From NCBI GenBank assembly GCA_016194745.1, contig JACQBA010000012.1, positions 9,165-73,164 on the forward strand: 64,000 nucleotides of DNA. Reading direction: 5' to 3'. Position numbers and translations under genes: made by a program. Within the stretch, counting starts at the first letter, position 1. Each line of letters begins with the position of its first letter. A model generated the notes under the pieces. It had not been told where the DNA came from. It saw only the letters and a list, made by a program, of their open reading frames with translations, and did not search any database. This document shows, in pieces, positions 13,728-50,276 of the stretch. The DNA is from Elusimicrobiota bacterium. Lineage in GTDB: Bacteria; Elusimicrobiota; Elusimicrobia; UBA1565; JACRDR01.

Positions 13728-14015
13728 GTGGCCGAGAAAGCGACGCTCAGCAAGGGCACGTGGAAGCACAGCCGCCGCATCGCCTGGCGGAAAGTGGGCG
13801 ACGAGGCGATCATCTTGGACGTGGAGACCGCGGTCTACTTCTCCCTGAGCGGGGCCGGGCTCCGGATGTGGGAGCTTCTCGGCGAGGGACGCGCGGCCGC
13901 CGAGATCGCGGGCGTCCTCGCGGAGGAATTCGACGCGGATGAGGACGAGTTGGCGGAGGACTGCGCCGAGCTTGCCGCGAAGCTGCAAAAGGAGCGGCTG
14001 ATCGAGCGGGCGTGA
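13728..14015 (+). CDS. PqqD-family protein (RiPP-recognition-element-like peptide chaperone)
   Basis: IAWRKVGDEAIILDVETAVYFSLSGAGLRMWELLGEGRAAAEIAGVLAEEFDADEDELAEDCAELAAKL fits the PqqD pattern (W..v.de.vl.d...g.y..Ln..g..iW.ll). Confidence 0.8.
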   Translation: MAEKATLSKGTWKHSRRIAWRKVGDEAIILDVETAVYFSLSGAGLRMWELLGEGRAAAEIAGVLAEEFDADEDELAEDCAELAAKLQKERLIERA

Positions 14016-15331
14016 TCGTCTTCGTCGATCCGCCCAGCCCGCCCGGGTTCATCGCGTTCCGTCACTCCCACGGCGGCTACGGGGAGTGCTGCAAGACCAG
14101 CCGTCTCAAGTTCCCGACCCTGGACCTGTTCCATTCCGCCTCGCTCCTGCTCGACCGGGGCTACGCGGCGTCCGTCGTCGACTCCGTCCTTCTCGATCAC
14201 GGAATCGACCAGTGCGTCGACGCGGTCCTGTCGAAGCGGCCCGAGGCCGTCGTGCTGCGCACGGCGTCCGGCTCCTGCCCGCACGATCTGGAGACCGCCC
14301 GCGCCCTCCGGCGGCGCTTCGACGGTCCGATCGTTTTCTACGGCCCGCACGCCGAGGTGGAAGCCGACGCGATCCTGAAGTCCGGCCCGGTGGACGCCGT
14401 CTTGTACGGCGAGGCCCCGTTCCCATTCCTCGACCTGGCGGAGAGGAGGCGCGTCGAGCGGCTCGCGTCCTTTCGCTCGCGTCGCATGACGCGGGCGCCG
14501 GCCAAGGCCTCGATGCCCGACGTGGACGCGCTCCCGATCCCGCGGTGGGACCTGGTGGACTACCGCAAGTATTCCTACGTCACCGCGCAGACCAGCTGGG
14601 GCTGCCCATTCCGCTGCGGCTACTGTCCGTACCCCGTCACTCAGGGCGAGGCGTGGCGCGCGCGCTCCGTCGCGTCGGTCGTCGAGGAGTTCGAGGCGCT
14701 GCGCGACCGCTACGGGCTGCGCTTCGTCCTCCTGCGCGACCCCGAGTTCACGCTGGACCGCGAGCGGACGCAGGCGCTGTGCCGGGCGCTGATCCGGGCG
14801 GGCGTCCCGATCACCTGGGGCTGCGAGACGCGGCTCGACACGCTCGACGACGCGCTCGCCGCGCTGATGGCGGAGGCCGGCTGCATGCGCGTCGCCTTCG
14901 GCGTCGAGACGATCCACGAGCCGGCGCTCAGGGCCATGGGGCGCAAGTCCCCGCGACCGGCCGAGATCCGGGCGAAGGTCGAGGGACTCAAGCGCCTCGG
15001 GATGCTCACCTACGCGATGTACATCGTCGGTCTGCCGGGCGAGACGGCGGAGAGCGCGCGCCGGACGGCCGAGTTCGCGCTCGAGTTGGACACGAACGCG
15101 GCCTCGTTTTCGATGGCGACGCCGTTTCCCGGCACGAGGCTCGAGGCGCTGGGACGCGAGCGCGGCGCGACCCAAGCGGAGGACCCGCTCCATCTGACGG
15201 GCTGCGTGCCGTCGATGCGCACCGAGACGCTGAGCATGAACGAGGTCGAGAGGCTCTATTTGTCGGCGAAAGGATCATGGAACGGACGAAAGCGAGACGC
15301 GCGGTCATCCGCGCCTTCAAGCCGTCTCTAG
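14012..15331 (+). CDS. B12-binding-domain radical SAM enzyme (class B)
   Basis: GTGA-coupled to the PqqD gene. An N-terminal Rossmann-like B12-binding region (VVLRTASGSCPHDLETARALRRRF..IVFYGPHA) is followed by SWGCPFRCGYCPYP (CX3CX2C). No Cys-rich SPASM tail. Confidence 0.85.
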   Translation: MIVFVDPPSPPGFIAFRHSHGGYGECCKTSRLKFPTLDLFHSASLLLDRGYAASVVDSVLLDHGIDQCVDAVLSKRPEAVVLRTASGSCPHDLETARALRRRFDGPIVFYGPHAEVEADAILKSGPVDAVLYGEAPFPFLDLAERRRVERLASFRSRRMTRAPAKASMPDVDALPIPRWDLVDYRKYSYVTAQTSWGCPFRCGYCPYPVTQGEAWRARSVASVVEEFEALRDRYGLRFVLLRDPEFTLDRERTQALCRALIRAGVPITWGCETRLDTLDDALAALMAEAGCMRVAFGVETIHEPALRAMGRKSPRPAEIRAKVEGLKRLGMLTYAMYIVGLPGETAESARRTAEFALELDTNAASFSMATPFPGTRLEALGRERGATQAEDPLHLTGCVPSMRTETLSMNEVERLYLSAKGSWNGRKRDARSSAPSSRL

Positions 15332-16404
15332 GCGAGTGCGAAGGGGACGCCCTGCGCGAGGCCGTGTCGAGCGGCTGGCTTGGGACGGGCATCTACACGC
15401 GGCTGTTCGAGTCGGCGCTGTCGAGGGACGTCGGCGGGCGCAGCGTCCTCGCGACGAACTCCGGGACGGCGGCGCTGCACCTGGCGCTCGCGGCCATGCG
15501 CGTCGAGGGAGGAGAGGTCCTCACGACCCCCGTCACCAGCGTCGCGACGAGCCACGCCATCTTGTACAACCGCGCCTTTCCTGTTTTCTGCGACGTGGAC
15601 CCGGAGACCGGGAACATCGACCCCGGCGCGATCGAGGCCTCCGTCACCCGGCGCACCCGAGCGATCGTGGTCGTCCACCTGGGCCACGCGTGCGACATGG
15701 ACCGCATCCTCGAGATCGCGAAGGCGCGCCGGCTCCTCGTGTTGGAGGACGTCTGCGCCTGCCACGCGGTGGGAGGCTCCTATAACGGGCGACCGCTCGG
15801 CACGATGGGAGACGCGGCGTGCTTCAGCTTCGGGCGCTTCAAGGGGCTCACCACGTTGGACGGCGGCGCGGTCGCCTGCGCCCGGGCGGAGTGGACCGAG
15901 CGCATGGTCCGCCTGCGCCGCATGGGCCACGGGGAGCGGGACGGCCGGATGGCGGAGGGCGAAGGCGGCGTCGAGGAACTGGGCTTTCACTACCGAATGA
16001 ACGATCTCGCGGCGGTGCTGGGACTCAGCCAGCTCCGGCGGCGGGGAGAGATCCAAGAGCGGCTCGACGAGATTCTGAGGATCTACGCGGACGGCTTGTC
16101 GGGCGTCTCGTTTCTGCGCGCGCCCAAGGCCGAGGCGTACTCGCGGGGCGTGCGCGCCTACGCCGCGTATCGGGTCCTCGGAGGACGGCGGGACGCGCTG
16201 CGCCGGCATCTCGCGGACCGCGGGATAGAGGTCAACGACGTCCTCTTTCCCAATCATCGCTACGCGCTCTACCGGCGCCATCGGCGGAAGCTGCCGGCCG
16301 CGGACCGCTTCTGCGCCGAGATGCTGCACCTGCCGTTCTACCCGGGTCTTTCCGACGGCGACGCCGATCGCGTCGTCGACACGATCCGGAAGTTCAGGGG
16401 ATAG
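15277..16404 (+). CDS. DegT/DnrJ/EryC1/StrS-family PLP-dependent aminotransferase
   Basis: Internal ATG with an AAAGGA SD; overlaps the rSAM 3' end by 55 nt. Motifs NSGTAALHLAL, PVTSVATSHAILY and CFSFGRFKGLT (candidate PLP lysine). Confidence 0.85.
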   Translation: MERTKARRAVIRAFKPSLGECEGDALREAVSSGWLGTGIYTRLFESALSRDVGGRSVLATNSGTAALHLALAAMRVEGGEVLTTPVTSVATSHAILYNRAFPVFCDVDPETGNIDPGAIEASVTRRTRAIVVVHLGHACDMDRILEIAKARRLLVLEDVCACHAVGGSYNGRPLGTMGDAACFSFGRFKGLTTLDGGAVACARAEWTERMVRLRRMGHGERDGRMAEGEGGVEELGFHYRMNDLAAVLGLSQLRRRGEIQERLDEILRIYADGLSGVSFLRAPKAEAYSRGVRAYAAYRVLGGRRDALRRHLADRGIEVNDVLFPNHRYALYRRHRRKLPAADRFCAEMLHLPFYPGLSDGDADRVVDTIRKFRG

Positions 16405-16412
16405 GGGGACGA

Positions 16413-16523
16413 ATGCCGTCCAAGAAGCCGAAGAAAGCCGCCGCCAAGAAGCGCGGCAAGAGAAAATACCAGAAGCCGGACCTGGTGAAGCACGGCGTCC
16501 TGTCGATCATCGAAGGCGACTAA
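16413..16523 (+). CDS. 36-aa Lys-rich small peptide (candidate precursor peptide)
   Basis: MPSKKPKKAAAKKRGKRKYQKPDLVKHGVLSIIEGD. An AGGGGGA SD sits 5 nt upstream, and the gene starts 9 nt after the DegT stop. 31 of 35 third positions are G/C, matching genome coding bias. The stop is 7 nt before a 30-bp-stem hairpin. Confidence 0.5.
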   Translation: MPSKKPKKAAAKKRGKRKYQKPDLVKHGVLSIIEGD

Positions 16524-16530
16524 CCCCGCC

Positions 16531-16615
16531 GGTGCCAGGTTTTCACTAATTCTCCTAACTCTCCTAATTCTCCGAAAGTTAGGCGAGTTAGGAGAATTAG
16601 TGAAAACCTGGCACC
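16531..16615. repeat. 85-bp low-GC palindromic repeat, copy 1 (MITE/REP-like)
   Basis: ggtgccaggttttcactaattctcctaact (16531..16560) is the perfect reverse complement of 16586..16615. A 25-nt centre has inner cctaa/ttagg pairing. Identical at 84 of 85 positions to 38401..38485. Confidence 0.92.
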
Positions 16616-17628
16616 AGCGCGGGGGAGCGCTCGCGCAGGAGGTCCATCGCGGCCTCGACGCGCGTCCGCGTCGGGGACCGCCGCGAGGGATCGCCGAGCG
16701 CGTCGACGGCGGGGCGCAGGAAGCCGGCGAGCCGGCACTGCTCCGAATACGTCCGGTGGCCTTGGGCGGCGATCCGTTCGGACTCGATGCGCCCCTGATC
16801 CGTCGACAAGTAGTAGCGCAGCGCGTCCGCCATCTTCTCCAGCGGCAGCGCCGCGAAGTCCCGTCCCGGCACGAGCGGCGGGGCCGCGGTCGCGGTCTCC
16901 GAGACCACGAACGCGCCTTGGCCGACTCCGTGCATCGCGACGCGGTGCCACTCGAAGTACGGCGCCGCCTCGCGATGGACGTTCAGCACGATCTTGGCGC
17001 GACGGGCGAGGCCGAGCATCTCCTCGGTCATCCGGCGGGGGGAATCCTTCCTGAGAAAGGCGTTGTCCGAGACCAGGCGCAGTTCGATCCGGTAGCGCCG
17101 CAGGTAGGGCGCGACGCTCTCGAAGAAGCGCTCCCGCCGGGGCACGCGGCTCCCCGCGAAAAGGACGTCGATCGGTCGTTCGGAGTGCCGGGGCAAGACG
17201 GAGGACGCCTGCAGGAACGGGGCGCCCGGCGCCCAGCCCATCGGCACGTACGCCGCGCGCTGGCCCTCCCTCCGCCACGCCTGGGATTGCGAGAAGTCCG
17301 CTTCCCACACGGCGTGAGCCCGCGTCAAGAGGCGCCGGACGAGAGGGAACCACTCGGCGGTCGGCTGCTCCGCGTTGTAGAGCACGACGCCCTCGGGCCA
17401 GGGCGCGACGCGCAGGCGGGCGCCGTCTCCGAGGAAGAAGAACTGCTGCGGCGCGACGACGAGATGCCAGTCGACGTCGGCGAGAAATCCTCCCGTCTCG
17501 CTGCCCCGCGCGACCTCCGCGCCCAAGTCTTCGAGTCCGGCGGCGAGGAGGTCGGCGATCTCCTGAAAGAAATAGTCCCCGAGGCGGCTGCAGTAGACGG
17601 CGGCGCGCAACAGAGGCGTACGGGTCAT
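16597..17628 (-). CDS. CgeB-like / glycosyltransferase-1-related protein
   Basis: DVLFAGSRVPRRERFF, AKIVLNVHREAAPYFEWHRVAMHGVGQGAFVVSE (Glyco_trans_1_2/CgeB-like). The last codons and the TAA stop lie inside the repeat. Confidence 0.65.
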   Translation of the reverse strand: MTRTPLLRAAVYCSRLGDYFFQEIADLLAAGLEDLGAEVARGSETGGFLADVDWHLVVAPQQFFFLGDGARLRVAPWPEGVVLYNAEQPTAEWFPLVRRLLTRAHAVWEADFSQSQAWRREGQRAAYVPMGWAPGAPFLQASSVLPRHSERPIDVLFAGSRVPRRERFFESVAPYLRRYRIELRLVSDNAFLRKDSPRRMTEEMLGLARRAKIVLNVHREAAPYFEWHRVAMHGVGQGAFVVSETATAAPPLVPGRDFAALPLEKMADALRYYLSTDQGRIESERIAAQGHRTYSEQCRLAGFLRPAVDALGDPSRRSPTRTRVEAAMDLLRERSPALVPGFH

Positions 17629-26890: not shown

Positions 26891-29403
26891 GAGCATTCCG
26901 AGTAGCCGCAGTCCTTGCAGCTCGGTCCCGAGCAGCCGGACTCGTGCGCGACGTTGCTCGAGTAGCACTTCGGGCAGAACTCCGCCTTGGCGAGGTTCGC
27001 GATCGACTCCACGGACTTCGTCTCCTGCCCGCCGCTGTCGTCGAGCCAGCCCGTCTTCTTGAGGTGCGTGCGCATCGCGATCGAGATCGCGTGGGCGATC
27101 GAGTTGACGCGCGCGTCGCCGAAGCCGACGGACCGGTCGCCCTTCACCGCGTTCAAGTGCTTGAGGATACGGATCGGGTCGCCGCCCTCGGCGAGGTATT
27201 TCGACAGCAGGATGCCGATGAGCGAGGTCAGCCCCGAAATCTCGGTGCCGAGCGGCGGGATGTTGGTGAACACCTGGTACGGGCCGCGTTCGTCGTAGTT
27301 GATGTGGATGTGCAGCGGCCCGTAGCCCGTCTTCACCTGATAGTACTCGGACTTGACGCCGAACGCCTCCGACGGGTCCCTCCGCTTCCTTTTCGCGGCG
27401 GCGCCGGACGCGGAGAGGTTGAGCACCTGCTGCGCCTTCGAGCCGTCGCGGTAGATCGTGATGCCCTTGCAGCCCAGCTCGTAGGCCATCGTGTAGGCGC
27501 GGCGCACGTCGTCCACCGTCGCCGAATTCGGCAGGTTGATCGTCTTGGAGACGCCGTTATCGACGTGCTTCTGGAACGCGGCCTGCACCTGCACGTGGAA
27601 CTCGACGGAGACGTCGTGGGAGGCCGGGAAGAGCTTCTGGATGTGCGGCGGGATCTCCTTGATGCCGCGCACCGACTTGTGGTTGTCGTCGATCCGCCGC
27701 CAGAGCTCCGACTCCCCGAGACCGAAGTAGCGGTGCTTGTGGGCGACCTCCTTGAAGAGGGGGTTCACCTCGAAGAACACGTCCTTGTCCTCGGGCGTCT
27801 CGCCCTTCTTGACCGCGTCGAGCGCCTTCGCGTTGTAGCGCGTGTAGGCGATGGCGAAGAAGGGCTCGATGCCGCCGCCCTGGAGCCCCGCCGCGATCGC
27901 GATCGTCCCGGTCGGGGCGATCGTCGTCCGCGCGCAGTTCCTCGGCAGCCGCCGCTCGCCCCGGAAGTACGGGCCTTCCGGATCGTAGATCGAGCTCTTC
28001 CAGTTCGGGAAGACCCCGCGCTCCTTGGCGATCTCCTCCGAGGCGTCGAGCGAGGCGTCGTTGATCGCCCGCATCAGCTTGTCGGCGAAGTCGAGCGCCG
28101 CGTGCGAGTCGAAGGCGACTCCCAGCTTGGCGAGCGCCTCCGCCCAGCCCATGACGCCGAGGCCGATCCTCCGGTTGCCCTTGGCCATCCGCTCGATCTC
28201 GGGCAGGGGGTAGTTGTTGATCTCGATCACGTCGTCGAGCAGGCGGATCGAGACGCGCACGACCTCCTTGAGCCGCTCGAAGTCGAAGGTGCCCTCGAGG
28301 AGCGGACCCTCGACGAAGTTCGCGAGGTTGATCGAGCCCAGGTTGCACGGCTCCCACGGGAGGAGCGGCTGTTCGCCGCAGGGGTTCGTCGACTCGATCT
28401 GCCCGAGCGCCGGCGTCGGGTTGGATCCCGAGGCGTTGATCCGGTCGATCACGACGTAGCCCGGATCGCCCGACTTCCAGGCGTGCTCGACCATCAGGTC
28501 GAAGACTTCCTTCGCGCGCACGCGCCCCGTGGGCTCGCCCGTGCGGGGATTGACGAGGTCGTACTCGGCGTCCGCGGCGACCGCCTTCATGAACTTGTCG
28601 TCGATCGCCACCGAGACGTTGAAATTCTCCATGACGGAGGCCTGGGATTTCATGAGGATGAAGTCCTTGATCTCGGGGTGGGTGTAGTGGAGGATCCCCA
28701 TGTTCGCCCCGCGCCGCGTGCCGCCCTGCTTCACGACGTCCGTCATCTTGTCGTACAGCTGCATGAAGGACAAGGCTCCGGAGGCGACGCCCTGCGTCTT
28801 CTTGACGAGGTCGTTCTTCGGCCGCAGGCGGCTGAAGGCGAACCCCGTGCCGCCGCCCGACTTCTGGATCAGCGACTGGGCCGCGAGCGCCTTGTTGATG
28901 CCTTCCATCGAGTCGGCCACGGGCAGCACGTAGCAGGCGGAGAGCTGCTGCAGCTCGCGCCCGGCGTTCATCAGGGTCGGCGAGTTGGGGAGGAAGTCCC
29001 AGCGGCTCATGACGCCGTAGAAGCGCGTCCGCCAGTCGTCGACCAGGAGCCGGGCCTCAGGCGTCTTCTCGTAGACGCTCTGAAGGTTGCGCTGCAGGCG
29101 CGCGAAGTTGGCCTCCCGCTCCGACGCTTCCAGCAGGCCCTCGTGCAGGAGCACCTGGTGCGATGCTGTCTGCCCGGGGCCGTACGCGGGGACGGCGTGG
29201 GTCGCGTGTTTGACGCCCTCGAAGACGCCCCACGGTTCCGCCTGAGGGTGGAACAGGATCTCCGCCAGCGCCAGGTTGTGCGCGACGCCGTCCAGCCAGG
29301 CCTCGACCGACGGCGCGTCGCGCAGATATTTGTCCTTGATCACCTTCTTTTGGTTCTCGGTGAGAGACAGGGCGACGGCGGGCTTGGCAGCGGGTTCTTG
29401 CAT
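26887..29403 (-). CDS. nrdJ: Adenosylcobalamin-dependent (class II) ribonucleotide reductase
   Basis: 838 aa. Motifs TNPCGEQPLLPWEPCNLGSINL and MGWAEAL, plus a C-terminal Cys-rich tail CPKCYSS...CSGPSCKDCGYSEC. Confidence 0.95.
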   Translation of the reverse strand: MQEPAAKPAVALSLTENQKKVIKDKYLRDAPSVEAWLDGVAHNLALAEILFHPQAEPWGVFEGVKHATHAVPAYGPGQTASHQVLLHEGLLEASEREANFARLQRNLQSVYEKTPEARLLVDDWRTRFYGVMSRWDFLPNSPTLMNAGRELQQLSACYVLPVADSMEGINKALAAQSLIQKSGGGTGFAFSRLRPKNDLVKKTQGVASGALSFMQLYDKMTDVVKQGGTRRGANMGILHYTHPEIKDFILMKSQASVMENFNVSVAIDDKFMKAVAADAEYDLVNPRTGEPTGRVRAKEVFDLMVEHAWKSGDPGYVVIDRINASGSNPTPALGQIESTNPCGEQPLLPWEPCNLGSINLANFVEGPLLEGTFDFERLKEVVRVSIRLLDDVIEINNYPLPEIERMAKGNRRIGLGVMGWAEALAKLGVAFDSHAALDFADKLMRAINDASLDASEEIAKERGVFPNWKSSIYDPEGPYFRGERRLPRNCARTTIAPTGTIAIAAGLQGGGIEPFFAIAYTRYNAKALDAVKKGETPEDKDVFFEVNPLFKEVAHKHRYFGLGESELWRRIDDNHKSVRGIKEIPPHIQKLFPASHDVSVEFHVQVQAAFQKHVDNGVSKTINLPNSATVDDVRRAYTMAYELGCKGITIYRDGSKAQQVLNLSASGAAAKRKRRDPSEAFGVKSEYYQVKTGYGPLHIHINYDERGPYQVFTNIPPLGTEISGLTSLIGILLSKYLAEGGDPIRILKHLNAVKGDRSVGFGDARVNSIAHAISIAMRTHLKKTGWLDDSGGQETKSVESIANLAKAEFCPKCYSSNVAHESGCSGPSCKDCGYSECS

Positions 29404-29617: not shown

Positions 29618-29713
29618 TAAGGGACACTCGCTTCGGCGAGCTACCTAAAAAAACCTTCCTGCGGCTTCGGCTGCGGAAACGGGAAATCCCCTTCAAGGGG
29701 ATTTCCCGTTTTT
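29618..29713 (+). ncRNA. Candidate small RNA (about 96 nt, unassigned family)
   Basis: Bounded by the plus-strand promoter and a 14-bp-stem terminator with a T5 tract. Contains ctcgcTTCGgcgag and ctgcggcTTCGgctgcgg hairpins (UUCG loops). No ATG-initiated ORF. Confidence 0.3.
29678..29713. terminator. Intrinsic terminator hairpin, probably bidirectional
   Basis: aacgggaaatcccc-ttcaa-ggggatttcccgtt followed by ttt on the plus strand (cccgttttt in total) and an A-tract on the other side. It lies 21 nt past the stop of the minus-strand gene 29734..31353. Confidence 0.7.
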
Positions 29714-33633: not shown

Positions 33634-35009
33634 TCCAGCTCTCTTTCCACGGCGGCGCGGGCACCGTCACCGGGTCCAAGCACCGGATCAACGTCAACGG
33701 AGAAGAGGTCCTCATCGACTGCGGCATGTTCCAGGGCCTCAAGGAGCTGCGCGAGAGGAACTGGACGACGCCGCCCTTCGACGTCGCCACGTTCAAGAAC
33801 CTCGTATTGACGCACGCGCACCTCGACCATACCGGGTGGCTGCCGCGCATGGTCCACCTGGGGTTCAAGGGAAAGATCTACGCGACCGCCGGCACGCGCG
33901 ACGTCGCCGAGATCATCCTGAAGGATTCCGCCCATCTGCAGGAAGAAGAGGCCGAGTTCCGGAACAAGAAGGGCATCAGCTCCCACGGGAAGGCCCTTCC
34001 TCTATATACCGTGGAGGACGTGGAGCAGACGATGCCGTTGTTCCAGACCGTGGAGTACGGGGCCTGGACGCAGGTGAGCCCGTCGATCTCGTTCCGGATG
34101 GTCGACGTGGGGCATATCCTCGGCTCGGCGGCGGTCGAGTTCAAGCTGGTCGATGGGGGACGGACGGTGCGGGTGCTCGCCTCGGGCGACGTGGGCCGCT
34201 ACGACATGCCTCTTCATCCCGACCCCGAGGACGCCCCGCCCTGCGACGCGCTTCTCCTAGAGTCGACCTACGGAGACCGGGACCACGTGCCCGAGCGGCC
34301 GGAGGAGCAGCTGCTGCGCGTCGTCAAGCTGGCGATCGACAGCGGCGGCGTCGTCTTGATCCCGGCGTTCGCGGTCGGCCGCAGCCAACAGGTCATCTTC
34401 GTCTTGAACGAACTTTTCCGCACCGGCAAGCTCCCGCGCATCCCGATCTTTCTGGACAGCCCCATGGGCATCAACGCGACGAAGCTCTACGTCGAGTACG
34501 CGAGCCGCTACCGCTTCGACGCGGAGACGCTCCGCGGCGGCGTGTGCACCCTCTACGACGGCGGGGTCAAGACGATCAAGACCGCGGCCGAGTCGATGCG
34601 CCTCGCCGAACTCAAGGGGCCCGCGGTCGTCATCTCCTCCAACGGGATGCTGACCGGCGGGCGCATCCTCCACCATTTGAAGAACTTCCTGCCCAACCCG
34701 CGCAACATCGTCGCGATCGTCGGCTACCAGGCGATCGGCTCGCGGGGCCGCATGCTCCAGGACGGAGCGAAGGAGCTGTCGTTGTTCCACGAGATGGTCC
34801 CCGTGCGGGCTCGCATCGAGGACTTGAAGGGATTCTCCGGCCACGCGGACGCGGGCGAGCTGATGCGCTGGACGAAGCACGTCGAGCCCAAGAAGTGCTT
34901 CCTCGTCCACGGCGAGCCGCAGGCCGCCGAGTTCCTGGCCCAGCGCATCCGCCGCGAGCGCCACTGGGACGTCCACGTCGCCAAGCTCGACGAGACCGTC
35001 GACCTGTAG
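33630..35009 (+). CDS. MBL-fold beta-CASP family hydrolase (RNA-metabolising nuclease type)
   Basis: ATGA-coupled. Motifs LIDCGMFQG, LTHAHLDHTGWLP, ESTYGDRDH, GFSGHAD, LVHGE. Confidence 0.85.
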   Translation: MIQLSFHGGAGTVTGSKHRINVNGEEVLIDCGMFQGLKELRERNWTTPPFDVATFKNLVLTHAHLDHTGWLPRMVHLGFKGKIYATAGTRDVAEIILKDSAHLQEEEAEFRNKKGISSHGKALPLYTVEDVEQTMPLFQTVEYGAWTQVSPSISFRMVDVGHILGSAAVEFKLVDGGRTVRVLASGDVGRYDMPLHPDPEDAPPCDALLLESTYGDRDHVPERPEEQLLRVVKLAIDSGGVVLIPAFAVGRSQQVIFVLNELFRTGKLPRIPIFLDSPMGINATKLYVEYASRYRFDAETLRGGVCTLYDGGVKTIKTAAESMRLAELKGPAVVISSNGMLTGGRILHHLKNFLPNPRNIVAIVGYQAIGSRGRMLQDGAKELSLFHEMVPVRARIEDLKGFSGHADAGELMRWTKHVEPKKCFLVHGEPQAAEFLAQRIRRERHWDVHVAKLDETVDL

Positions 35010-35040
35010 TCGCGAAGGCGTCGTCGATCCTGGTCTGAGC

Positions 35041-35063
35041 GGCCTATCGCGGATAGGCCTTTT
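35041..35063 (+). terminator. Rho-independent terminator
   Basis: ggcctatc-gcg-gataggcc followed by tttt, 32 nt after the MBL gene stop. Confidence 0.7.
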
Positions 35064-35129
35064 CGTGATCTCCGGCGGAGCCCAAGGACCTGAATTCAGC
35101 CCGGCGGGTCCAGCTATAATGGCCGCCTG

Positions 35130-36836
35130 ATGATCCCGAGCCTCGCTCTCGCGCTTTCGCTTTTCGTGCTGGCCTTGCCCGCGGCCGCGCAGCCGCGCCT
35201 GGCGTCCCGCCTGCATTTCGACGCATCCCCGATCCAAGCGTTTCGCCCGGGACTCGAGGCGGTCGCGGCCTGGGCCGGGACGGAGAGCGGCGGACTCATT
35301 TTAGGAAGCGACTCGGCGTGGCGCGCCTTCTCGAGCGTGATCGGACCGCAGGCGGCGGCCGAGAGGGCGTTCACGGCGGCTCCTCTCGCGCAGGCGCTCT
35401 CGGCCGGCGGCGACGCGCACTTGTCCAAGCGCCTCACTCGGATCGCGGACGCGCCGGAAGAGGAGCAGCGGGAGCTGGTCCGCGAGCTTGACGCCGCGCG
35501 CGCGCGGGCGTCCCGCGCGGTGGCTTCCGCCGTGCACGACGCGCTCGAGGCGGAGGTCAGAGGAGCGCGCGAGCCCGCGGCGGGTTCCGGCGAGTGGATC
35601 GACCGTCTGGTCAAGTGGAGACGGCTCCGCGACGATCTCTCTGCGCTCGAGGCGACGGGACTCTACGGCGAGGCGGTCGAGGCGGCCCACATCGAGGTCG
35701 GGGCCGCCATGAGCCGGTGGCGCAGCCGCATGATGACGGCCAACGCCGGCGTCGGCTGGTACGCCGTGGCGCCGGGCGAGGCGCTCCAAGACTACATCGA
35801 GCGCACGCAGCGGGAGCTCATCGAGACGGACCCGGCGCTTTTTTTCAAGAAGATGAAGAAGGCCTCGAAGGATCCCTTCAACTACGCCCGCGTGATGATG
35901 CCGCAGTTCTACGGCACGCTCGCGCAGCAGCCCGAAGCCGCGCGGCTCAAAAGGTCGGTCAGGATCGTGATCAGCGGGGACGTGCATCACGGCAATGTCG
36001 ACGTGCTGCGCCGCGGCGAAAACCTCGTCCCTCAGCCGGACGATCTCGACGACTCGATCCGCGCGCCGGTCGCCCTCGAGCTCTCGCGCATGCTGCTCAT
36101 GCTCGCCGCGGGGACCCAAGGCGATGAGAAGAAGGCGCGCGCCGTGATCGAGGACGCGCGGGCGGCGTACCGGACGTGGGCGAGGCGCGGGTTCCGCGCG
36201 TGGACCGCCGCGGTCCAAGAGGAAGACGCGGTCAAGAACGCCAACGCCGAGCCGAAAGAGTGGTCCAGCGAGGGGAAACCCATTCACGATCCTTATGAAG
36301 CCGGCTGGGCGCTGGAGGCCGCGGGCCTCGACCCCGAGAAATGGCGGGCTCGCGACCGGCGCGGCTCCGGGGGCAGCTCGATCGGCGTGCGGCGCATCAC
36401 GTTTTCGCATCCGGACCGCGACGATGCCTTCGAGCTCAAGGAGCAGCGGCCCTCGGCCGCCCTGGCCTTCGGTGCCGTCGCCTCCGAGGCGCTCGAGAGC
36501 GTCCGCGTCGCGGCGGGCTACGCGGCGCTGCGCCAGGTCATGGATGAGTCGACCGTGCTCGAATCACGCGGAGCGAGCTGGCTGCGGCGGCATCGATTCA
36601 GTAAGGAACTCGAGCTCGACGCCTCGGATCCCGCATCGGTCGCGCGCGTGCTGGCGGGCATGACCGCGCAGATGCACCGGCGGGCCGGAGGCTCTCCCAG
36701 CCGTCTCGTCGCGGCGGCACGCGGCGTCACCACGGAGCTCGTCTTGCGGATCTTGCGCGAGTTCGAGGAGCACCAGACGGAGCTTCGCCGCCTGCTGGAC
36801 GCGGGGACCTGGGCCGATCTGAAGGAAACGGCTTAA
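35130..36836 (+). CDS. DUF2252-like protein with signal peptide
   Basis: MIPSLALALSLFVLALPAAAQ signal. KDPFNYARVMMPQFY and ISGDVHHGN resemble DUF2252 motifs. Confidence 0.5.
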   Translation: MIPSLALALSLFVLALPAAAQPRLASRLHFDASPIQAFRPGLEAVAAWAGTESGGLILGSDSAWRAFSSVIGPQAAAERAFTAAPLAQALSAGGDAHLSKRLTRIADAPEEEQRELVRELDAARARASRAVASAVHDALEAEVRGAREPAAGSGEWIDRLVKWRRLRDDLSALEATGLYGEAVEAAHIEVGAAMSRWRSRMMTANAGVGWYAVAPGEALQDYIERTQRELIETDPALFFKKMKKASKDPFNYARVMMPQFYGTLAQQPEAARLKRSVRIVISGDVHHGNVDVLRRGENLVPQPDDLDDSIRAPVALELSRMLLMLAAGTQGDEKKARAVIEDARAAYRTWARRGFRAWTAAVQEEDAVKNANAEPKEWSSEGKPIHDPYEAGWALEAAGLDPEKWRARDRRGSGGSSIGVRRITFSHPDRDDAFELKEQRPSAALAFGAVASEALESVRVAAGYAALRQVMDESTVLESRGASWLRRHRFSKELELDASDPASVARVLAGMTAQMHRRAGGSPSRLVAAARGVTTELVLRILREFEEHQTELRRLLDAGTWADLKETA

Positions 36837-36865
36837 CGCCGCCAAGCAAGACCGGGAGCGCCCGT

Positions 36866-36907
36866 GACGCTGGTGCCTTGACGCTGGTGCCATGACGCTG
36901 GTGCCAG
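36866..36907. repeat. 3 x 14-nt tandem repeat of the palindromic-element terminus
   Basis: gacgctggtgcctt / gacgctggtgccat / gacgctggtgccag. The last unit is the left tip of repeat copy 2. Confidence 0.8.
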
Positions 36908-36986
36908 GTTTTCACAAATTCTCCTAACTCGCCTAACTCTGGCCGAAAAGTTCGGTGCTCTAGGAGCGTTAGTGAATACCCGGCAC
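36900..36986. repeat. Palindromic repeat, copy 2 (degenerate)
   Basis: The left arm ggtgccaggttttcacaaattctcctaact has 1 mismatch to copy 1. The right arm is decayed (ctaggagcgttagtgaatacccggcac). The centre has a ccgaa-aag-ttcgg stem. Confidence 0.7.
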
Positions 36987-36997
36987 TGGTGTAAGAC

Positions 36998-38362
36998 TTA
37001 GTCCACCCGGCGCGCCGTCATGGGCATGCCGCCCTTGGGCCGCAGGGTGATGACGGGCTCGGGCTCGGCCGTTTTTCCCGGGATGAGGTGCAGGGTGTAG
37101 CGCTGGAGCACGGTCGCGAGGATCAGCATCGCCTCCATCATCGCGAACTCGTTGCCGATGCACTGGCGCGGGCCGCCGCCGAAGGGAAAATAAGCGAAGC
37201 GCGGGAGCGACTTCATGCGCGAGGGCTCGAAGCGCTCCGGGTCGAAGCCCTCGGGGTTCTCCCAGAAGGCCGGGTGCCGGTGGGTGATGTAGGAGCTGAC
37301 CAGGACGGCCGCGCCCTTCGGGATGCGAAATCCCCCGATCTCGTCCTCGCCGATCGCGGAGCGCTCGGTCATCCACGCGGGCGGAAACAGGCGCATCGAC
37401 TCCTGGATCACCATCCGCGTGTAGCGGAGCTTGCCCAAGTCGGCCATCGTCGGCACGCGGCCGCCCAGCTCGGTCTCGAGCTCCTTGCGGACTTGGCGCT
37501 CGGCCTGCGGATGCTTGGAGAGGAGATACCACGTCCACGTCAGCGCGTTGGAGGTCGTCTCGTAGCCGGCGAGGAAGATCGTCATGACCTCGTCGCGGAG
37601 CTGCTGGTCGCTCATCGACTCTCCGGTCTCATCGTCCTTGGAATGGAGGAGCATCGACAACAGGTCCTCGTCTTTCCCGCCCGCGCGGCGCGCGCGGATG
37701 GCGTCCATCACCACCGCGTCCAGCGTCGCGATGGCCTTCTTGTAGCGCCGGTTCTCGAGCGTCGGCACGAACAGGGGTAGAAAGGACAGCGGCTCGTGGA
37801 TGCGTTCCATGATCTGCTTGAGCGCGTACGTCAGCGCCTCGCCGACCTCGTCCGACTTGTCGGCCATGTCGACGCTGAGCAAGGTCTTGCCGACGACGCG
37901 CAGCGTGAGGCGCATCATCTCGACCGCGACGTCGATCGGCGCGTCGGGCTTCTCGCGCCGGTCCCAGGCGTCCAGCATCTCCTTCGTCAGGTCCGTCATC
38001 GTAGTTCCGAACCCCGCGACGCGCTCGCGGTGGAACGCCGGTTGGGCGATGCGGCGCTGCCGCAGCCAGAAGTCGCCTTCGCTCGTCAATAGCCCCATGC
38101 CGAGCAGCGGGCGCATCTTCTTCCAGCTGTAGGTGCTCTTGCCGTAGTTCCGATGGTTGTTCTGCAGCACGTGCTGCACGTGGTCGGGATGCCAGAGCAG
38201 GTAGTAGTAGATCGGGCCGAAGGGGAAGCGGACGATCTCGCCGTAGGTGTTCACGTTCTTGAACATCGTGCCGAGGGGGTCCTTGCGGTACTCGCGCAGG
38301 ATGCCGTAGATCGGGCTGCCTTTGGGCCCCGGCGGAGCGGGAAGCCGTCGCGGTGTGGCCAT
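36998..38362 (-). CDS. Cytochrome P450
   Basis: FGGGPRQCIGNEFA heme-thiolate loop, ESMRLFPP (ExxR), I-helix FLAGYETTSNALTW. 454 aa. Confidence 0.92.
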   Translation of the reverse strand: MATPRRLPAPPGPKGSPIYGILREYRKDPLGTMFKNVNTYGEIVRFPFGPIYYYLLWHPDHVQHVLQNNHRNYGKSTYSWKKMRPLLGMGLLTSEGDFWLRQRRIAQPAFHRERVAGFGTTMTDLTKEMLDAWDRREKPDAPIDVAVEMMRLTLRVVGKTLLSVDMADKSDEVGEALTYALKQIMERIHEPLSFLPLFVPTLENRRYKKAIATLDAVVMDAIRARRAGGKDEDLLSMLLHSKDDETGESMSDQQLRDEVMTIFLAGYETTSNALTWTWYLLSKHPQAERQVRKELETELGGRVPTMADLGKLRYTRMVIQESMRLFPPAWMTERSAIGEDEIGGFRIPKGAAVLVSSYITHRHPAFWENPEGFDPERFEPSRMKSLPRFAYFPFGGGPRQCIGNEFAMMEAMLILATVLQRYTLHLIPGKTAEPEPVITLRPKGGMPMTARRVD

Positions 38363-38400
38363 GAGAGAACCCTATTATACCAGGCGAACGCCGCTGTTCT

Positions 38401-38485
38401 GGTGCCAGGTTTTCACTAATTCTCCTAACTCTCCAAATTCTCCGAAAGTTAGGCGAGTTAGGAGAATTAGTGAAAACCTGGCACC
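38401..38485. repeat. 85-bp low-GC palindromic repeat, copy 3
   Basis: Differs from copy 1 by one central substitution (ctccaaattc vs ctcctaattc). Perfect 30-bp arms. Confidence 0.92.
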
Positions 38486-38491
38486 AAAGGA

Positions 38492-40204
38492 TTAGGCGCC
38501 GAGTTTGCGGGCTAGGACGCGGGCGACGGCGCGGAGACGGTCGCCCCAGGGGAGGCGCCAGAAATTGGTCTTGAGGGCGCCGCGGGTGAAGTAGGTCTTC
38601 TGCGAGTAGTCGATGGCGACCTCGACCATGACGGGGCGTCCCGACGCGGCCTCGGCGAAGGCGGGCGCCAGGTGCGCGAGGTCGGCGTCGCGGGCGATCA
38701 AGCGGTAGGCGCAGCCGGCCGCCTTGGCGAAGTCCTCGACGCGGTAGGGATGGAGCGCGCTCGAATCGGCGCGGTCCAGGGACGCCCGTTGGAACTGGGC
38801 GATCTGCCCGAGCTCCTCGTCGCGCAGGACGAAGGCCACGACGCCGATCCCGTAGCGCGCCGCGGTGAGAAGCTCGAGCCCGGTCATGAGGAGCGCGCCG
38901 TCCCCGGCGAGAGCCGCGACGGGCGCCTCGGGATTGGCGAGCTTGGCGCCGATCGCGGCGGGCACCGCGTATCCCATGCAGGAGTAGTCGATCGGCCCGA
39001 GGAAGCGGCCCGGAGCGTCGAGGCGCAGATGCTCCATCGCGAGGAAGGTCCCGTTTCCGCTGTCGGTCGTGTAGATCGCCCGAGGCCCCGCCGCCGCTTG
39101 GAGCGCCGGAAAGAAGGCCGCCGGCGAGACCCGCGAGGCGCTTCTCGCGGAGGCGCGCTCCTCGTCCAGCTCGCGGCGCCCCTCGGCGATCCGGGCGAAG
39201 AGCTCCTTGCCGCGAGTCGAGGAGAGCTTCGGGACCAAGGCGCGCAGGAAGTCCGCGGCATCCGCCTCGACGGCGAGGGCGGCCGGAAAGTTGCGGTTGA
39301 AGACGGAACCGTCGATGTCGACGTGGATCAGGGTCTTCGGGGGAGTCAGCCCGTAGCTCGCGGTCGCCACCTCGCCGAAGCGGCAGCCGATCGCGAGCAG
39401 GCAGTCGCACTCGTCCATGAGCTCGCGGACGTAGCGCGGCGCCATCGCGCCGAAGCCGTTCCACAGCCAGAAGGGATGGCTCTCCGGGAAGACGCCCTTG
39501 CCCTGGATCGTGGTGCAGACGGGCGCGCCCAAGGCGTCCGCCGCGTGGACGAGGAGCGCCGAAGCCCCCTTCGCTCCGAAGCCGGCGTAGATCGCGGGGC
39601 GCCGCGCCGCGTTGAGGAGCTTCGCGGCCGCCTCGACGTCGCTCGCGGTCGGCGGCCGCGCCGCGGCAGGCGCGTCGAGCGTCCCGAGCGAGACGGCCTC
39701 GTGGGCCAGCACGTAGTAGTTCGCCGGGACCTCGACCGCGACGGGGCCGGGACAGCCGGAGCGCGCGAGGGCGCAGGCGCGCCGGATCACCGCGTAGATA
39801 TCCTCCGGGCGCTCGACTTTCATCGCCGCCTTCGTGACCGGCCGCAGCATCGCGAGCTGGTCCACGTCATGGAGCTGGTAGGCGCGGCCCGTGTCGTTTC
39901 GGATGCCGCAGGTCAGCACCAGCATCGGAATGTTGTCCATGAATGCTTCCGCGATGCCCGATAGGCAATGCGTCACGCCCGCGCCGGGGACCACGTTCGC
40001 CACGCCGAGGACGCCGGAGCTCCGGGACACCGCGTCGGCCATGAATCCCGCGCTCTGTTCGTCGGTCACGAGGATCGCCTGGACGGAGGAGCCCTCCAAG
40101 GCGTCGTAGAGTTCGGTGTTGTGCGTGCCGGGGATGCCGAAGGTCCAGCGCACGCCTTCGTCCTGCAGGGCTTGGACCGCGAGCTCGGCGCCCCGGCGCT
40201 TCAT
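38492..40204 (-). CDS. Thiamine-diphosphate-dependent enzyme (acetolactate synthase / 2-hydroxyacyl-CoA lyase superfamily)
   Basis: Start at MKRRGAELAVQALQDEGVRWTFGIPG. ThDP motif GDGALLMTGLELLTAARY. 570 aa. The upstream 360 aa of ORF 38492..41290 are shadow sequence. Confidence 0.88.
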   Translation of the reverse strand: MKRRGAELAVQALQDEGVRWTFGIPGTHNTELYDALEGSSVQAILVTDEQSAGFMADAVSRSSGVLGVANVVPGAGVTHCLSGIAEAFMDNIPMLVLTCGIRNDTGRAYQLHDVDQLAMLRPVTKAAMKVERPEDIYAVIRRACALARSGCPGPVAVEVPANYYVLAHEAVSLGTLDAPAAARPPTASDVEAAAKLLNAARRPAIYAGFGAKGASALLVHAADALGAPVCTTIQGKGVFPESHPFWLWNGFGAMAPRYVRELMDECDCLLAIGCRFGEVATASYGLTPPKTLIHVDIDGSVFNRNFPAALAVEADAADFLRALVPKLSSTRGKELFARIAEGRRELDEERASARSASRVSPAAFFPALQAAAGPRAIYTTDSGNGTFLAMEHLRLDAPGRFLGPIDYSCMGYAVPAAIGAKLANPEAPVAALAGDGALLMTGLELLTAARYGIGVVAFVLRDEELGQIAQFQRASLDRADSSALHPYRVEDFAKAAGCAYRLIARDADLAHLAPAFAEAASGRPVMVEVAIDYSQKTYFTRGALKTNFWRLPWGDRLRAVARVLARKLGA

Positions 40205-41718
40205 GCGGCCGCGCGCTCCCGGCTGGCGATGCGCTCGCGCGCGGCCTCGGCGGCGCGGTCGGCCAACGCCATCACGGTGAGATAGGGATTGACCTCGGAG
40301 CACCGCGGGAAAAGACTCGCGTCGGCCACGTACAGCCAGGGCAGCCCGTGGACCCGCCCGCGCGCGTCCGTCACCGAATCGGCCGCGCTCTCGCCCATGC
40401 GGCAGCCGCCCATGAGATGCGCGCTCGAGACCGCGACCCGCCCCGTCTGCATGTAGCCCTCGTTGATCAGAGTATCTAAGTCCATTTCTGCGGATTTGTC
40501 GATGATGAATCGCGCCGAGGCCGGGGCGTGGACGCGCCGCGCGCCGGCGGCGAAGAAGAGCCGCGCGCTCGCCCGCATGGCGGAGACGAAGGCCCGCATC
40601 GTCTTCGGCGAGAGACGATAGTCGACGACCGGCTCGCCGTTCGGGCCGATCGTGACGCGGTTGTCGCGCTCCGCCTCGTCCAAAGCGAGGACGAGGATCA
40701 TCTGCAGGAGGTCCATCCGCGACACGAACGCCTCGTGAGCGGCGCCGAAGCCCGAGAGGCTCTTGGCGGTCGTGAAGGGGAAATACATGCAGGTCTCGAG
40801 CAGGAAGCCGTCCGTCTCGGCGAAGTGGTCGCAGTAGTAGCTCTTCGGATGGCCGTGGTAGTTCGTGATCGGATTCTCGTGCTGCGCCGCGAGGATCAGC
40901 GCGGGATGCGCCGTGAAGTAGCGGCCCAAGGCGGGCAGCCCTGCGCCGAAGCCCGAGCGCAGGAGAAGCGCCGGGGACTGCACCGCGCCCGCCGACAGGA
41001 TCACCGTGTCCGCCTCGATCGTCCGTCGGCCGGGAGGCCACAACGACGGGTGTCCGATCCCGGACGACGAGACGACGACGCCGAGTTCCGCCCCGCGGCC
41101 ACGCGGGCGGATCCGCTCGACTTTGCAGTTGGTCACGACCAAGACGCCGTTCCTCTCGGCTTCGGGGAGCTGGACGCGGTGCGTGCCCTGCTTCGCCGCA
41201 TTGGGGCATCCCATGTTGCACATGCCCGAGCCTTTGCAGCCCTTGAGGTTCAGCGGGAACTGCGCCGCCCGCCAGCCGAGCGTCCGGCACGCGTCGAAGA
41301 AAAGGCGGTTGTTATCGTTGATCGCTTCGGGACCCAGAAGATGGACGTTGTTTTCGCCCGCGTACTTCTCGCTGCGCCGCCTCAGGTCCTCCCACTCGAG
41401 TCCCGGGACGGCCCAGCGCGTGACGGTCTCTTTCGGGATCACGAGGGAGGTGCCGGTGTAGACGACGGTCGAGCCGCCGTACGCCTTGGCGAAGGCGAGC
41501 GTCATGCTTTTGTCCTTCGTGAGGAAGCCGCCCGAGTCGAAGTAGAGGCGGCCCGCCATCTCCAGCTCGCGTCCCGTGAACTCCTCTTCCCTTAGTTTGG
41601 GTCCCCACTCGAGCACCGCGACGCGTCGACCGTCCTTGCATAGAGGCGACAAGACTTTGGCCGCGGTGCCTCCGCCCGCGCCCGAGCCGATCACGACCGC
41701 GTCGAACCTTTCAGTCAT
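40201..41718 (-). CDS. GMC-family FAD oxidoreductase (alcohol-oxidase-like)
   Basis: FDAVVIGSGAGGGTAAKVL dinucleotide fold, GGSTVVYTG, and C-terminal AHLMGGCRMG...VADASLFP. ATGA overlap with the ThDP gene. Confidence 0.85.
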   Translation of the reverse strand: MTERFDAVVIGSGAGGGTAAKVLSPLCKDGRRVAVLEWGPKLREEEFTGRELEMAGRLYFDSGGFLTKDKSMTLAFAKAYGGSTVVYTGTSLVIPKETVTRWAVPGLEWEDLRRRSEKYAGENNVHLLGPEAINDNNRLFFDACRTLGWRAAQFPLNLKGCKGSGMCNMGCPNAAKQGTHRVQLPEAERNGVLVVTNCKVERIRPRGRGAELGVVVSSSGIGHPSLWPPGRRTIEADTVILSAGAVQSPALLLRSGFGAGLPALGRYFTAHPALILAAQHENPITNYHGHPKSYYCDHFAETDGFLLETCMYFPFTTAKSLSGFGAAHEAFVSRMDLLQMILVLALDEAERDNRVTIGPNGEPVVDYRLSPKTMRAFVSAMRASARLFFAAGARRVHAPASARFIIDKSAEMDLDTLINEGYMQTGRVAVSSAHLMGGCRMGESAADSVTDARGRVHGLPWLYVADASLFPRCSEVNPYLTVMALADRAAEAARERIASRERAAA

Positions 41719-50053: not shown

Positions 50054-50138
50054 GGTCTTGTTCCTCGATGGGTCCGGCTCCATCACGTCGGAGCTTCCCA
50101 TTGCAGAGGATACGCCCGCCGCCGCGCGATTATTTCGG

Positions 50139-50237
50139 GGGGCGGGGATCGGGGGTCGGGGTGCGGAACGGCAAATGCCTTTCATGAAGGGCCGCGGCCT
50201 TTCCGAACTCCGCCCCCCGAACCCCGACCCCCGCCCC
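50139..50237. other. 28-nt imperfect inverted repeat made of G-runs / C-runs (G-quadruplex-capable on both strands)
   Basis: Left arm ggggcggggatcgggggtcggggtgcgg (50139..50166) matches the reverse complement of ccgccccccgaaccccgacccccgcccc (50210..50237) at 25 of 28 positions. The loop is 43 nt. Confidence 0.6.
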
Positions 50238-50276
50238 AAAAAAGGTCGACCCCCGGGAGACTGCCCCCGGGGGTCG
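50238..50276 (-). terminator. Rho-independent terminator of the serpin-like gene
   Basis: Minus strand: cgacccccggg-(8-nt loop)-cccgggggtcg, then acc and TTTTTT. It lies 18 nt after the stop at 50294. Confidence 0.75.

Follow-up and report, generated by a model that had tools for sequence, protein, structure and literature searches.

What is an AT-rich palindrome of 86 nt doing, in several copies and each time just behind a stop codon, in the GC-rich genome of an Elusimicrobiota bacterium? The window considered here, a stretch of 64,000 nucleotides, carries housekeeping genes (those for MetRS, Tmk and RNR) together with many genes for polysaccharide synthesis, and the element occurs in it three times:

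16531..16616, + strand: copy c1, an 86-nt unit composed of the 85-nt palindrome and a common 3′ A
38401..38486, + strand: copy c2, in the same orientation as c1 and identical to it at 85 of 86 positions
36900..36987, − strand: copy c3, in the orientation opposite to that of c1 and c2, with one arm decayed

Architecture and gene context of the three copies

The two well-preserved copies lie 22 kb apart between unrelated flanks. Over the palindrome proper (16531-16615 and 38401-38485) they are identical at 84 of 85 positions, the sole change being T/A at element position 35, and this part of the preliminary description was borne out by the sequence read-out as well as by the repeat search. The latter places the unit at 86 nt, the A at 16616 and 38486 being common to c1 and c2. 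In both copies 31 perfect outer arm pairs, and not 30 as first described, are followed by a 1×1 mismatch, 5-7 further pairs and a 7-nt loop. The hairpin of more than 30 bp that had been proposed for the RNA holds, with predicted minimum free energies of −64.7 kcal/mol for c1 (z −15) and −60.1 kcal/mol for c2 (z −14). Folded as single-stranded DNA, c1 reaches −39.6 kcal/mol; a single arm alone gives −0.2 kcal/mol, no better than shuffled sequences. The window contains the 29-nt arm five times, whereas 100 dinucleotide shuffles do not contain it once. The copies are low in GC as claimed, the measured values being 44.7% for c1 and c2, 51% for c3 and 68.0% for the window instead of the ~42% and ~70% initially estimated, and they represent the only low-GC islands with strong folding in the window. 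An arm-profile search of the window with nhmmer revealed neither further copies nor solo arms. One weak arm match at 27263-27280 was discarded as a chance match that lies inside the RNR coding sequence and is kept as coding in relatives.

Each arm begins with the GC-rich terminus GGTGCCAGG and continues in an AT-rich stretch containing two to three direct sub-repeats, TCTCCTAA, with a period of 9-10. Sub-repeats of this size, about one helical turn apart, could serve as a binding array, and the element would then be bound, as double-stranded DNA or as a cruciform, by a host protein with a nucleoid, partition or regulatory role. The arm motif GTTTTCAC/GTGAAAAC even resembles the parS half-site, TGTTTCAC. 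However, the half-sites within the element are 53 nt apart and do not abut as they do in parS, and known operators are much shorter than a perfect palindrome of 86 nt. Moreover, the copies are found at gene ends and not at promoters, and one of them is decayed, so a protein-binding site strikes us as highly improbable. A sigma-54 promoter, for which TGGCAC in the terminus might be taken, was rejected on reading the sequence: there is no TTGC at the right spacing.

The third copy, originally described as a decayed copy at 36900..36986, is real, but it ends at 36987 and its decay concerns one arm only. The left arm, next to the DUF2252 gene, matches the right-arm type of c1 and c2 at 38 of 40 positions with a single mismatch in the first 39, and reverse alignment of the whole DUF2252-side half shows 43 of 44 positions to be those of the c1/c2 right half. 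At position 17 this arm carries a private A. The likeness to c1 runs on into the flank, where two bases beyond the common A still match (GGCACC-AGCG in c1 and c3, GGCACC-AAAG in c2). The opposite arm, next to the P450 gene, retains 28 of 40 matches and has acquired no compensatory changes, and the hairpin is weakened to −37 to −41 kcal/mol. One-sided decay departs from a simple neutral decay expectation. At its DUF2252 side, c3 is joined by a small tandem array:

36865..36906, + strand: 14-nt unit TGACGCTGGTGCCA repeated 3.0 times (TRF, 96% matches, score 77)

The unit consists of 7 nt of flank and the first 7 nt of c3, which means that the junction between element and flank has been triplicated. 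Replication slippage at a fork stalled by the hairpin may have produced the array, as may repeated processing of the c3 terminus.

The genes adjoining the three copies are the following:

16413..16523, + strand: small ORF of 36 aa (MPSKKPKKAAAKKRGKRKYQKPDLVKHGVLSIIEGD) with a GGGGGA Shine–Dalgarno sequence and a GC3 of 0.86
16597..17628, − strand: glycosyltransferase-like ORF of 343 aa (Pfam Glyco_trans_1_2), convergent with the small ORF
35130..36836, + strand: DUF2252 gene, convergent with the P450 gene, with c3 and the tandem array downstream
36998..38362, − strand: P450 gene (Pfam p450, E 3e-95), stop codon at 36998-37000
38374..38382, − strand: extended −10 box TGGTATAAT, 11 nt before the P450 ATG, as read from the sequence
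38492..40204, − strand: gene for a TPP-dependent enzyme (P0121) of 570 aa, stop codon at 38492-38494

All three copies lie 6-10 nt past a stop codon, in line with the earlier observation that they hug gene ends. Copy c1 begins 7 nt past the stop of the small ORF at 16413-16523 (+), c2 is located 6 nt past the stop of the TPP gene and 38 nt ahead of the P450 ATG, and c3 follows the P450 stop at 10 nt. The small ORF itself lies downstream of PqqD-like, B12-radical SAM and aminotransferase genes. It had also been stated that all three copies are intergenic, which is correct for c2 and c3; c1 overlaps the last five to six codons and the stop of ORF 16597-17628 (−), encoding its final residues (L)VPGFH and providing the TAA stop codon. 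If the 86-nt unit is taken out of c1, a 340-aa ORF results that ends three codons on with ...SPA(R/L)RG* at a TAG, which overlaps the TAA that terminates the convergent small ORF. The impression is that c1 entered the glycosyltransferase-like gene 7-8 nt ahead of its former stop codon; a deletion that restores the frame has a likelihood of about 1 in 3 by accident. The idea that c1 had inserted into a pre-existing hairpin was rejected, as the reconstructed empty site folds like shuffled sequences (z −0.33).

The position of c2 is of particular relevance for a possible function. The extended −10 box TGGTATAAT, missed by the two-hexamer promoter scan because it has no −35 box, lies between c2 and the P450 gene, and c2 therefore parts the 3′ end of the TPP gene from the P450 gene's own promoter. 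Such a precise placement, with a gene end on one side and the following promoter on the other, the occurrence of every copy 6-10 nt past a stop codon and the extreme hairpin (z about −15) would all make sense if the element were mainly a host-selected RNA structure of the 3′ end, acting as terminator, insulator, stabilizer or RNase III site and spread by recombination or gene conversion, in a co-option similar to that suspected for SPRITE repeats. We consider this a possible but rather unlikely origin. The pairing of c3 was lost uncompensated, from −65 to about −40 kcal/mol, which selection should have prevented; c3 is therefore better regarded as a dead copy than as a selected structure. In addition, the presence of the same 86-nt sequence at unrelated loci would still require a copy mechanism.

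The P450 gene, together with its promoter, is exactly what the mutually inverted copies c3 and c2 enclose. In this c3-P450-c2 arrangement both arms that face outward are intact and the inward c3 arm is decayed, as if only the outer ends mattered. This raises the question of whether the copies are the recombination or transposition ends of a mobile cassette, with c3 and c2 mobilizing the P450 gene as a MITE-bounded composite or in an attC-like fashion. In favour of such a cassette, no Elusimicrobiota appear among the named top matches of the P450 (Cyanobacteria, Chloroflexota and others), the best homologue is 63% identical, and the neighbours of its homologues elsewhere are unrelated. The GMC-TPP pair is conserved in the related Elusimicrobia genome GCA_016180815.1 (L102), where it is followed 10 nt on by a hydrolase gene, with neither a P450 gene nor an element downstream. 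Against such a cassette, no direct repeats flank the c3-P450-c2 unit as a whole, the GC3 of the P450 gene is host-like (0.93) and c1 brackets nothing. A single bracketed gene is likely to be a coincidence, given that elements lying past stop codons often flank single genes. The arrangement is thus compatible with pairwise gene mobilization, and equally to be expected by coincidence if copies land after stops; overall we judge a mobile P450 cassette to be very unlikely. A Pfam scan of the ~48 ORFs of the window detected no transposase or integrase and no match to Y1_Tnp, and within this set of ORFs the original statement that the window is devoid of a transposase holds.

Assembly support, further copies and distribution

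Long perfect palindromes can be generated by template switching during library preparation, and an assembly or library artefact such as a fold-back chimera or an adapter hairpin has to be considered. This explanation is effectively refuted. Logan contigs, which are independent assemblies of the SRR12113409 and SRR12113410 reads, match the window exactly across the flanks and 28-30 nt of the arms (L001 corresponds to 36907-38428 and L105 to 34484-36929). The same junctions between flank and arm are present in the assemblies of the two runs; they are seen for c2 (in L001, L103 and L104) and for c3, and the TGACGCTGGTGCCA array is likewise found in contigs of both runs. An artefact would also have had to arise at three loci with different flanks, to diverge in one of them and to supply the stop codon used by ORF 16597-17628. 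We know of no adapter that the element sequence resembles.

Every Logan contig examined terminates inside the element arms. The positions of these breaks are informative, because a contig that leaves unique sequence and enters a repeat is carried on for 30 nt when k = 31. The DUF2252-side contigs from the two runs enter the left arm of c3 and end there after exactly 30 nt, and on the P450 side the contig breaks off at arm position 8. Owing to its private A at position 17, the c3 left arm has no 31-mer in common with c1 or c2. To account for the breaks within it, the sample must contain a further sequence with arm positions 1-37 of the c3 variant and different neighbours. On the TPP side, the contigs of both runs end in TTT plus 28 arm bases, whereas TT plus 29 would be expected from the window copies by themselves; a break one base early points to an additional copy with TT at its flank. 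The one break left, TCT plus 28, agrees exactly with what the right flank of c1 predicts and hence validates the break-point reasoning. From these break points in the assembly graph we infer at least two more copies outside the window, either in the same genome or in co-occurring strains.

How far does the element extend beyond this sample? Not one match was obtained when 185,579 GTDB representative genomes were scanned for the exact pattern. Searches of IMG/VR with a 16-mer and of JGI metagenomes with a 20-mer returned 18 matches, all of them chance single words on low-GC gut or phage contigs without extension. Peptides encoded by the element (four open frames, concatenated) had no match among 5.8 billion proteins, which makes a very high copy number unlikely; a single HMMER match among 1.84 billion representatives was due to chance and concerned a eukaryote-type tandem repeat. 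When plasmids and phages were searched by blastn for a parent IS with matching ends, only chance-level matches to plasmids and none to phages were obtained. Rfam yielded 0 matches at gathering thresholds, the only models to appear being eukaryotic miRNA-precursor hairpins far below threshold.

Among relatives, neither a copy nor an arm was present in 1.2 Mb around the RNR gene from 80 related genomes, and there is no element downstream of DegT in locus L035. The closest relatives have protein identities of 63% for P450, 66% for TPP and 65-80% for RNR (Elusimicrobiota MAGs), and synteny is mostly gone. The databases contained no genome close enough for a comparison with empty sites, and GTDB no close relative. 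Taken with the near-identity over 86 nt of c1 and c2 between unrelated flanks, the absence from distant relatives supports the initial proposal of a dispersed, copied element. A single full-text search of the literature led to one general insertion-sequence survey and to no account of interspersed repeats or MITEs in Elusimicrobiota.

Comparison with known classes of repeats

The preliminary description favoured a MITE or a REP-like element. Part of this proposal can be retained: the sequence is copied, has the appearance of an insertion and has no transposase nearby. It lacks, on the other hand, a target-site duplication, a terminal tag and a hairpin within the arm. The sequences bordering the copies are CCCCGCC / AGCGCGG for c1, CTGTTCT / AAAGGAT for c2 and GACGCT / GGTGTAA for c3, and no direct repeat of 2-10 nt is present at any of the three, the young c1 and c2 included.

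Bacterial MITEs include the Correia elements, RUP, BOX and ERIC, and transcribed Correia elements are targets of RNase III (PMC10969869; PMC3049150). With 86 nt the element falls well within their size range (<500 bp) and has perfect inverted arms of 31 bp. It is AT-rich relative to its host, resides at gene ends, gives rise to a stable stem-loop in the transcript and, as MITEs can, supplies a stop codon and alters gene ends. Of the multiple dispersed copies expected of a MITE, three are seen in 64 kb and at least two more may be deduced from the Logan break points. The element differs from MITEs in that the inverted repeat spans nearly the whole element (31-38 of the 43 nt in each half) rather than forming short TIRs around an unrelated core, in the lack of a target-site duplication and in that no parent IS with matching ends was encountered among plasmids and phages. 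A Tn3-type 38-bp IR or TIME is not supported either. Such elements have a 5-bp duplication, a GGGG start and a TAAG inner end, none of which is found here.

REPINs, as presented in the sources cited, are doublets of REP sequences that form hairpins and are mobilized by RAYT transposases (Bertels & Rainey 2011, PMC3116915; Di Nocera 2013, PMC3733652). The terminal 16-mers start 71 bp apart in GI REPINs and 69 bp apart in the element, and both are palindromic over their whole length, with highly conserved ends, a less conserved centre and a single long hairpin (PMC3116915). Both are extragenic and mostly downstream of genes, between convergent or unidirectional ORFs, without a duplication and without an adjacent transposase. 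However, half of the element does not form a hairpin of its own (−0.2 kcal/mol), while a REP half is an imperfect hairpin of 20-40 bp. The REP features given in the survey of these sequences include an unpaired tag, GTAG or CGTC, at one end; the abstract of the survey counts 8 phyla and names a few, Elusimicrobiota not being among those named (PMC3733652). None of GTAG, CTAC, CGTC and GACG is present at or beside the termini of c1 and c2. The element is furthermore AT-rich in a GC-rich genome, in contrast to the GC-rich REPINs of Pseudomonas.

SPRITE repeats are enriched at the 3′ ends of coding sequences (PMC3049150), a placement that the proponents of a host-selected RNA structure could claim in their favour. 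Like them, the element is a low-copy, interspersed long duplex, AT-rich with respect to the host and right at the 3′ ends of coding sequences, with no established target-site duplication and a suspected co-option as terminator. A SPRITE has an 18-bp stem and a long U-rich tract, whereas the element has a stem of ~38 bp and no U-tract. On neither strand is the stem followed by a T-run (AGCGCGG and AAAGGAT on one strand, GGCGGGG and AGAACAG on the opposite strand), and the terminator scan did not flag the element. The bidirectional terminator function first ascribed to it is thus not supported in the canonical sense. This also weakens the case for a selected RNA structure, since the genome does make use of a canonical bidirectional terminator with A-tract and T-tract, located in the window at 29677-29711.

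The core consensus of attC sites is GTTRRRY/RYYYAAC. The centre of the element, GTTAGGC/GCCTAAC as read from the sequence, fits this consensus, and the single P450 gene between two copies recalls attC sites as imperfect palindromes flanking single genes, promoter-bearing or promoterless; both points would favour a mobile P450 cassette. In the element, however, the core-like motifs are internal, the stem has no extrahelical bases and there is no unpaired central spacer. Copies c2 and c3 have opposite orientations, and there is no integrase in the window, no array and no duplication around the bracketed unit. The element works in the manner of a MITE or REPIN, yet it lacks a trait that defines each of them, the duplication in the one case and the sub-hairpin and tag in the other, and it is therefore filed only as a bacterial interspersed palindromic repeat in the broad sense.

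Palindromes of relatives and a model for the element

High-GC Elusimicrobiota loci contain a few long AT-rich palindromes that have unrelated interiors and are situated in intergenic spacers beside gene ends:

3776-3852 of L026: 77 nt, GC 0.42, in the spacer between two co-directional genes
12502-12583 of L050 (L050a): 82 nt, GC 0.40, 8 nt past the RNR stop
18119-18189 of L050: at most ~15 nt from the upstream stop or overlapping it, with A/T-tract flanks like those of a true bidirectional terminator
4689-4753 of L029: at most ~15 nt from the upstream stop or overlapping it

That unrelated AT-rich palindromes of relatives are similarly placed, one of them 8 nt past the RNR stop and another with the flanks of a bidirectional terminator, is again what a selected 3′-end RNA structure would predict. 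There is also some likeness in sequence. The arms of the L026 and L050a palindromes contain two to three short direct sub-repeats each (TTTGAC), and the termini of these two palindromes agree with those of the element at 11 of 16 positions (p ~0.003 each by shuffling, with nine termini compared). For a palindrome past the RNR gene in a Limnocylindria MAG the agreement is 10 of 16 terminal positions (p 0.015). The terminal consensus with the distant Elusimicrobiota palindromes reads GGKGNCA...TTTSAM. None of the analogues recurs within the small amount of DNA compared. The likeness hints at a superfamily with conserved ends, for which the support is moderate given that nine termini were compared. 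One may go further and envisage a superfamily, as yet undescribed, of AT-rich whole-length palindromes with GGKGNCA...TTTSAM ends and sub-repeats in their arms, which would be mobilized by a transposase, insert past stop codons without duplication and, as pairs, carry genes such as that in c3-P450-c2. In this extended form we hold the proposal to be unlikely. Its hosts would be high-GC Elusimicrobiota and possibly organisms beyond them.

The explanation we prefer, with about an even chance of being correct, is that of a non-autonomous mobile palindrome, restricted to one lineage and MITE/REPIN-like in kind, which is present in low to moderate copy number and inserts without duplication just after stop codons. 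In this model a transposase whose gene lies in another part of the genome would bind and cleave at the termini GGTGCCAGG and the sub-repeats TCTCCTAA. The element would insert via a single-stranded hairpin intermediate in the style of IS200/IS605/RAYT; such a route is favoured over DDE cut-and-paste because of the missing duplication, the landing past stops and the full palindrome. Points that speak against a mobile palindrome are that only three copies are seen, that there is no duplication, no transposase in the window and no matching IS in the plasmid and phage collections.

Once inserted, the element should be co-transcribed with the upstream gene. For ORF 16597-17628 this is certain, as its stop codon lies inside c1. 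The transcript would fold into a hairpin of ~38 bp with about −60 kcal/mol, able to block 3′ exonucleases, to offer a site for RNase III and to insulate neighbouring transcription units from each other, as in the case of c2 between the end of the TPP gene and the P450 promoter. The RNA hairpin is probably a stabilizer of the 3′ end or an insulator. Mobility of the palindrome and selection of its RNA structure, the main competing explanation, are compatible with each other and need not be exclusive.

Genome dynamics in the uncultured phylum Elusimicrobiota could usefully be traced with a small mobile palindrome that rewrites the 3′ ends of genes. In the present case it has donated a stop codon to one gene, parted two transcription units and bracketed an apparently acquired P450 gene, and it is a practical source of assembly breaks. 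If the terminal likeness to the distant palindromes is true, it would point to a conserved transposition system; otherwise it would be one more lineage-specific repeat of the MITE/REP-like type.

A possible RiPP-type gene cluster beside c1

The region 13728-16523, upstream of the first copy of the 86-bp AT-rich palindromic repeat (c1), is possibly a RiPP-type gene cluster, composed as follows.

13728-14015: PqqD-family peptide-chaperone-like ORF (NCBIfam lasso_PqqD models, E 3e-9, below cut-off)
14012-15331: B12-binding radical SAM gene (AprD4, HpnJ and ApyD-like models, every one below cut-off)
~15.3-16.4 kb: PseC/DegT-type aminotransferase gene, following the radical SAM gene
end at 16523, 3' of the aminotransferase gene: 36-aa ORF (peptide MPSKKPKKAAAKKRGKRKYQKPDLVKHGVLSIIEGD) with a good Shine–Dalgarno sequence

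The stop of the 36-aa ORF lies 7 nt before the start of c1, and its peptide contains a YxxPxLxxxG motif that resembles the lasso-peptide leader motif recognised by PqqD-like domains. The longest ORF at 14086-16404 is a composite of two real genes (radical SAM and DegT) in a GC-rich overlapping frame, and the one at 38492-41290 combines a GMC oxidoreductase and a TPP enzyme gene in the same manner; the boundary between the true genes falls near 15331 in the first case and near 40204 in the second.

Sequences surrounding c2, c3 and the P450 gene

The two other copies of the repeat, c3 and c2, flank a cytochrome P450 gene, and each has a distinct short feature at its side.

36865-36906: 14-nt unit TGACGCTGGTGCCA, 3.0 tandem copies
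38374-38382, - strand: perfect extended -10 box TGGTATAAT, just downstream of c2

The array represents a triplicated junction made of flanking sequence and the first 7 nt of c3, and is also found in independent Logan assemblies from two runs. Just 11 nt separate the extended -10 box from the ATG of the P450 gene downstream, a spacing which implies that the P450 transcript would be nearly leaderless and made from its own promoter.

Palindromes in other genomes

MAGs from related Elusimicrobiota, together with a single Limnocylindria MAG, possess AT-rich palindromes of their own (46-82 nt), located in intergenic spacers adjoining gene ends, two of them after the RNR (ribonucleotide reductase) gene.

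L026 3776-3852: AT-rich palindrome
L050 12502-12583: AT-rich palindrome
L050 18119-18189: AT-rich palindrome
L029 4689-4753: AT-rich palindrome
L099 7834-7879: AT-rich palindrome

Three of these have termini resembling GGTGCCAGGTTTTCAC (10-11/16 positions). The 16-nt terminus of the 86-bp element also matches, at 13/16 positions, the RNR segment CGTACCAGGTGTTCAC (window 27263-27281, - strand, and around position 12100 in many RNR loci); this being conserved coding sequence, we judged the likeness to be due to chance.

Other features and a probable intrinsic terminator

The glycosyltransferase gene block at 55300-59500 has a markedly lower GC3 (0.71-0.74, compared with 0.85-0.95 elsewhere in the window) and may be a later-acquired portion of the polysaccharide locus. 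Overlapping imperfect G-run/C-run inverted repeats (GGGGGGCGGGGATCGGGGGTCGGGG ... CCCCGACCCCCGCCCC, 50134-50237) occupy the 5' end of a HEAT-repeat ORF (48935-50239, - strand).

29677-29711: perfect 35-nt palindrome AAACGGGAAATCCCCTTCAAGGGGATTTCCCGTTT, flanked by A- and T-tracts

This palindrome falls in the gap bounded by the RNR start (29403) and the upstream gene's end (29734). In form it resembles a canonical bidirectional intrinsic terminator, and it provides an example of the ordinary terminator form in the source genome.
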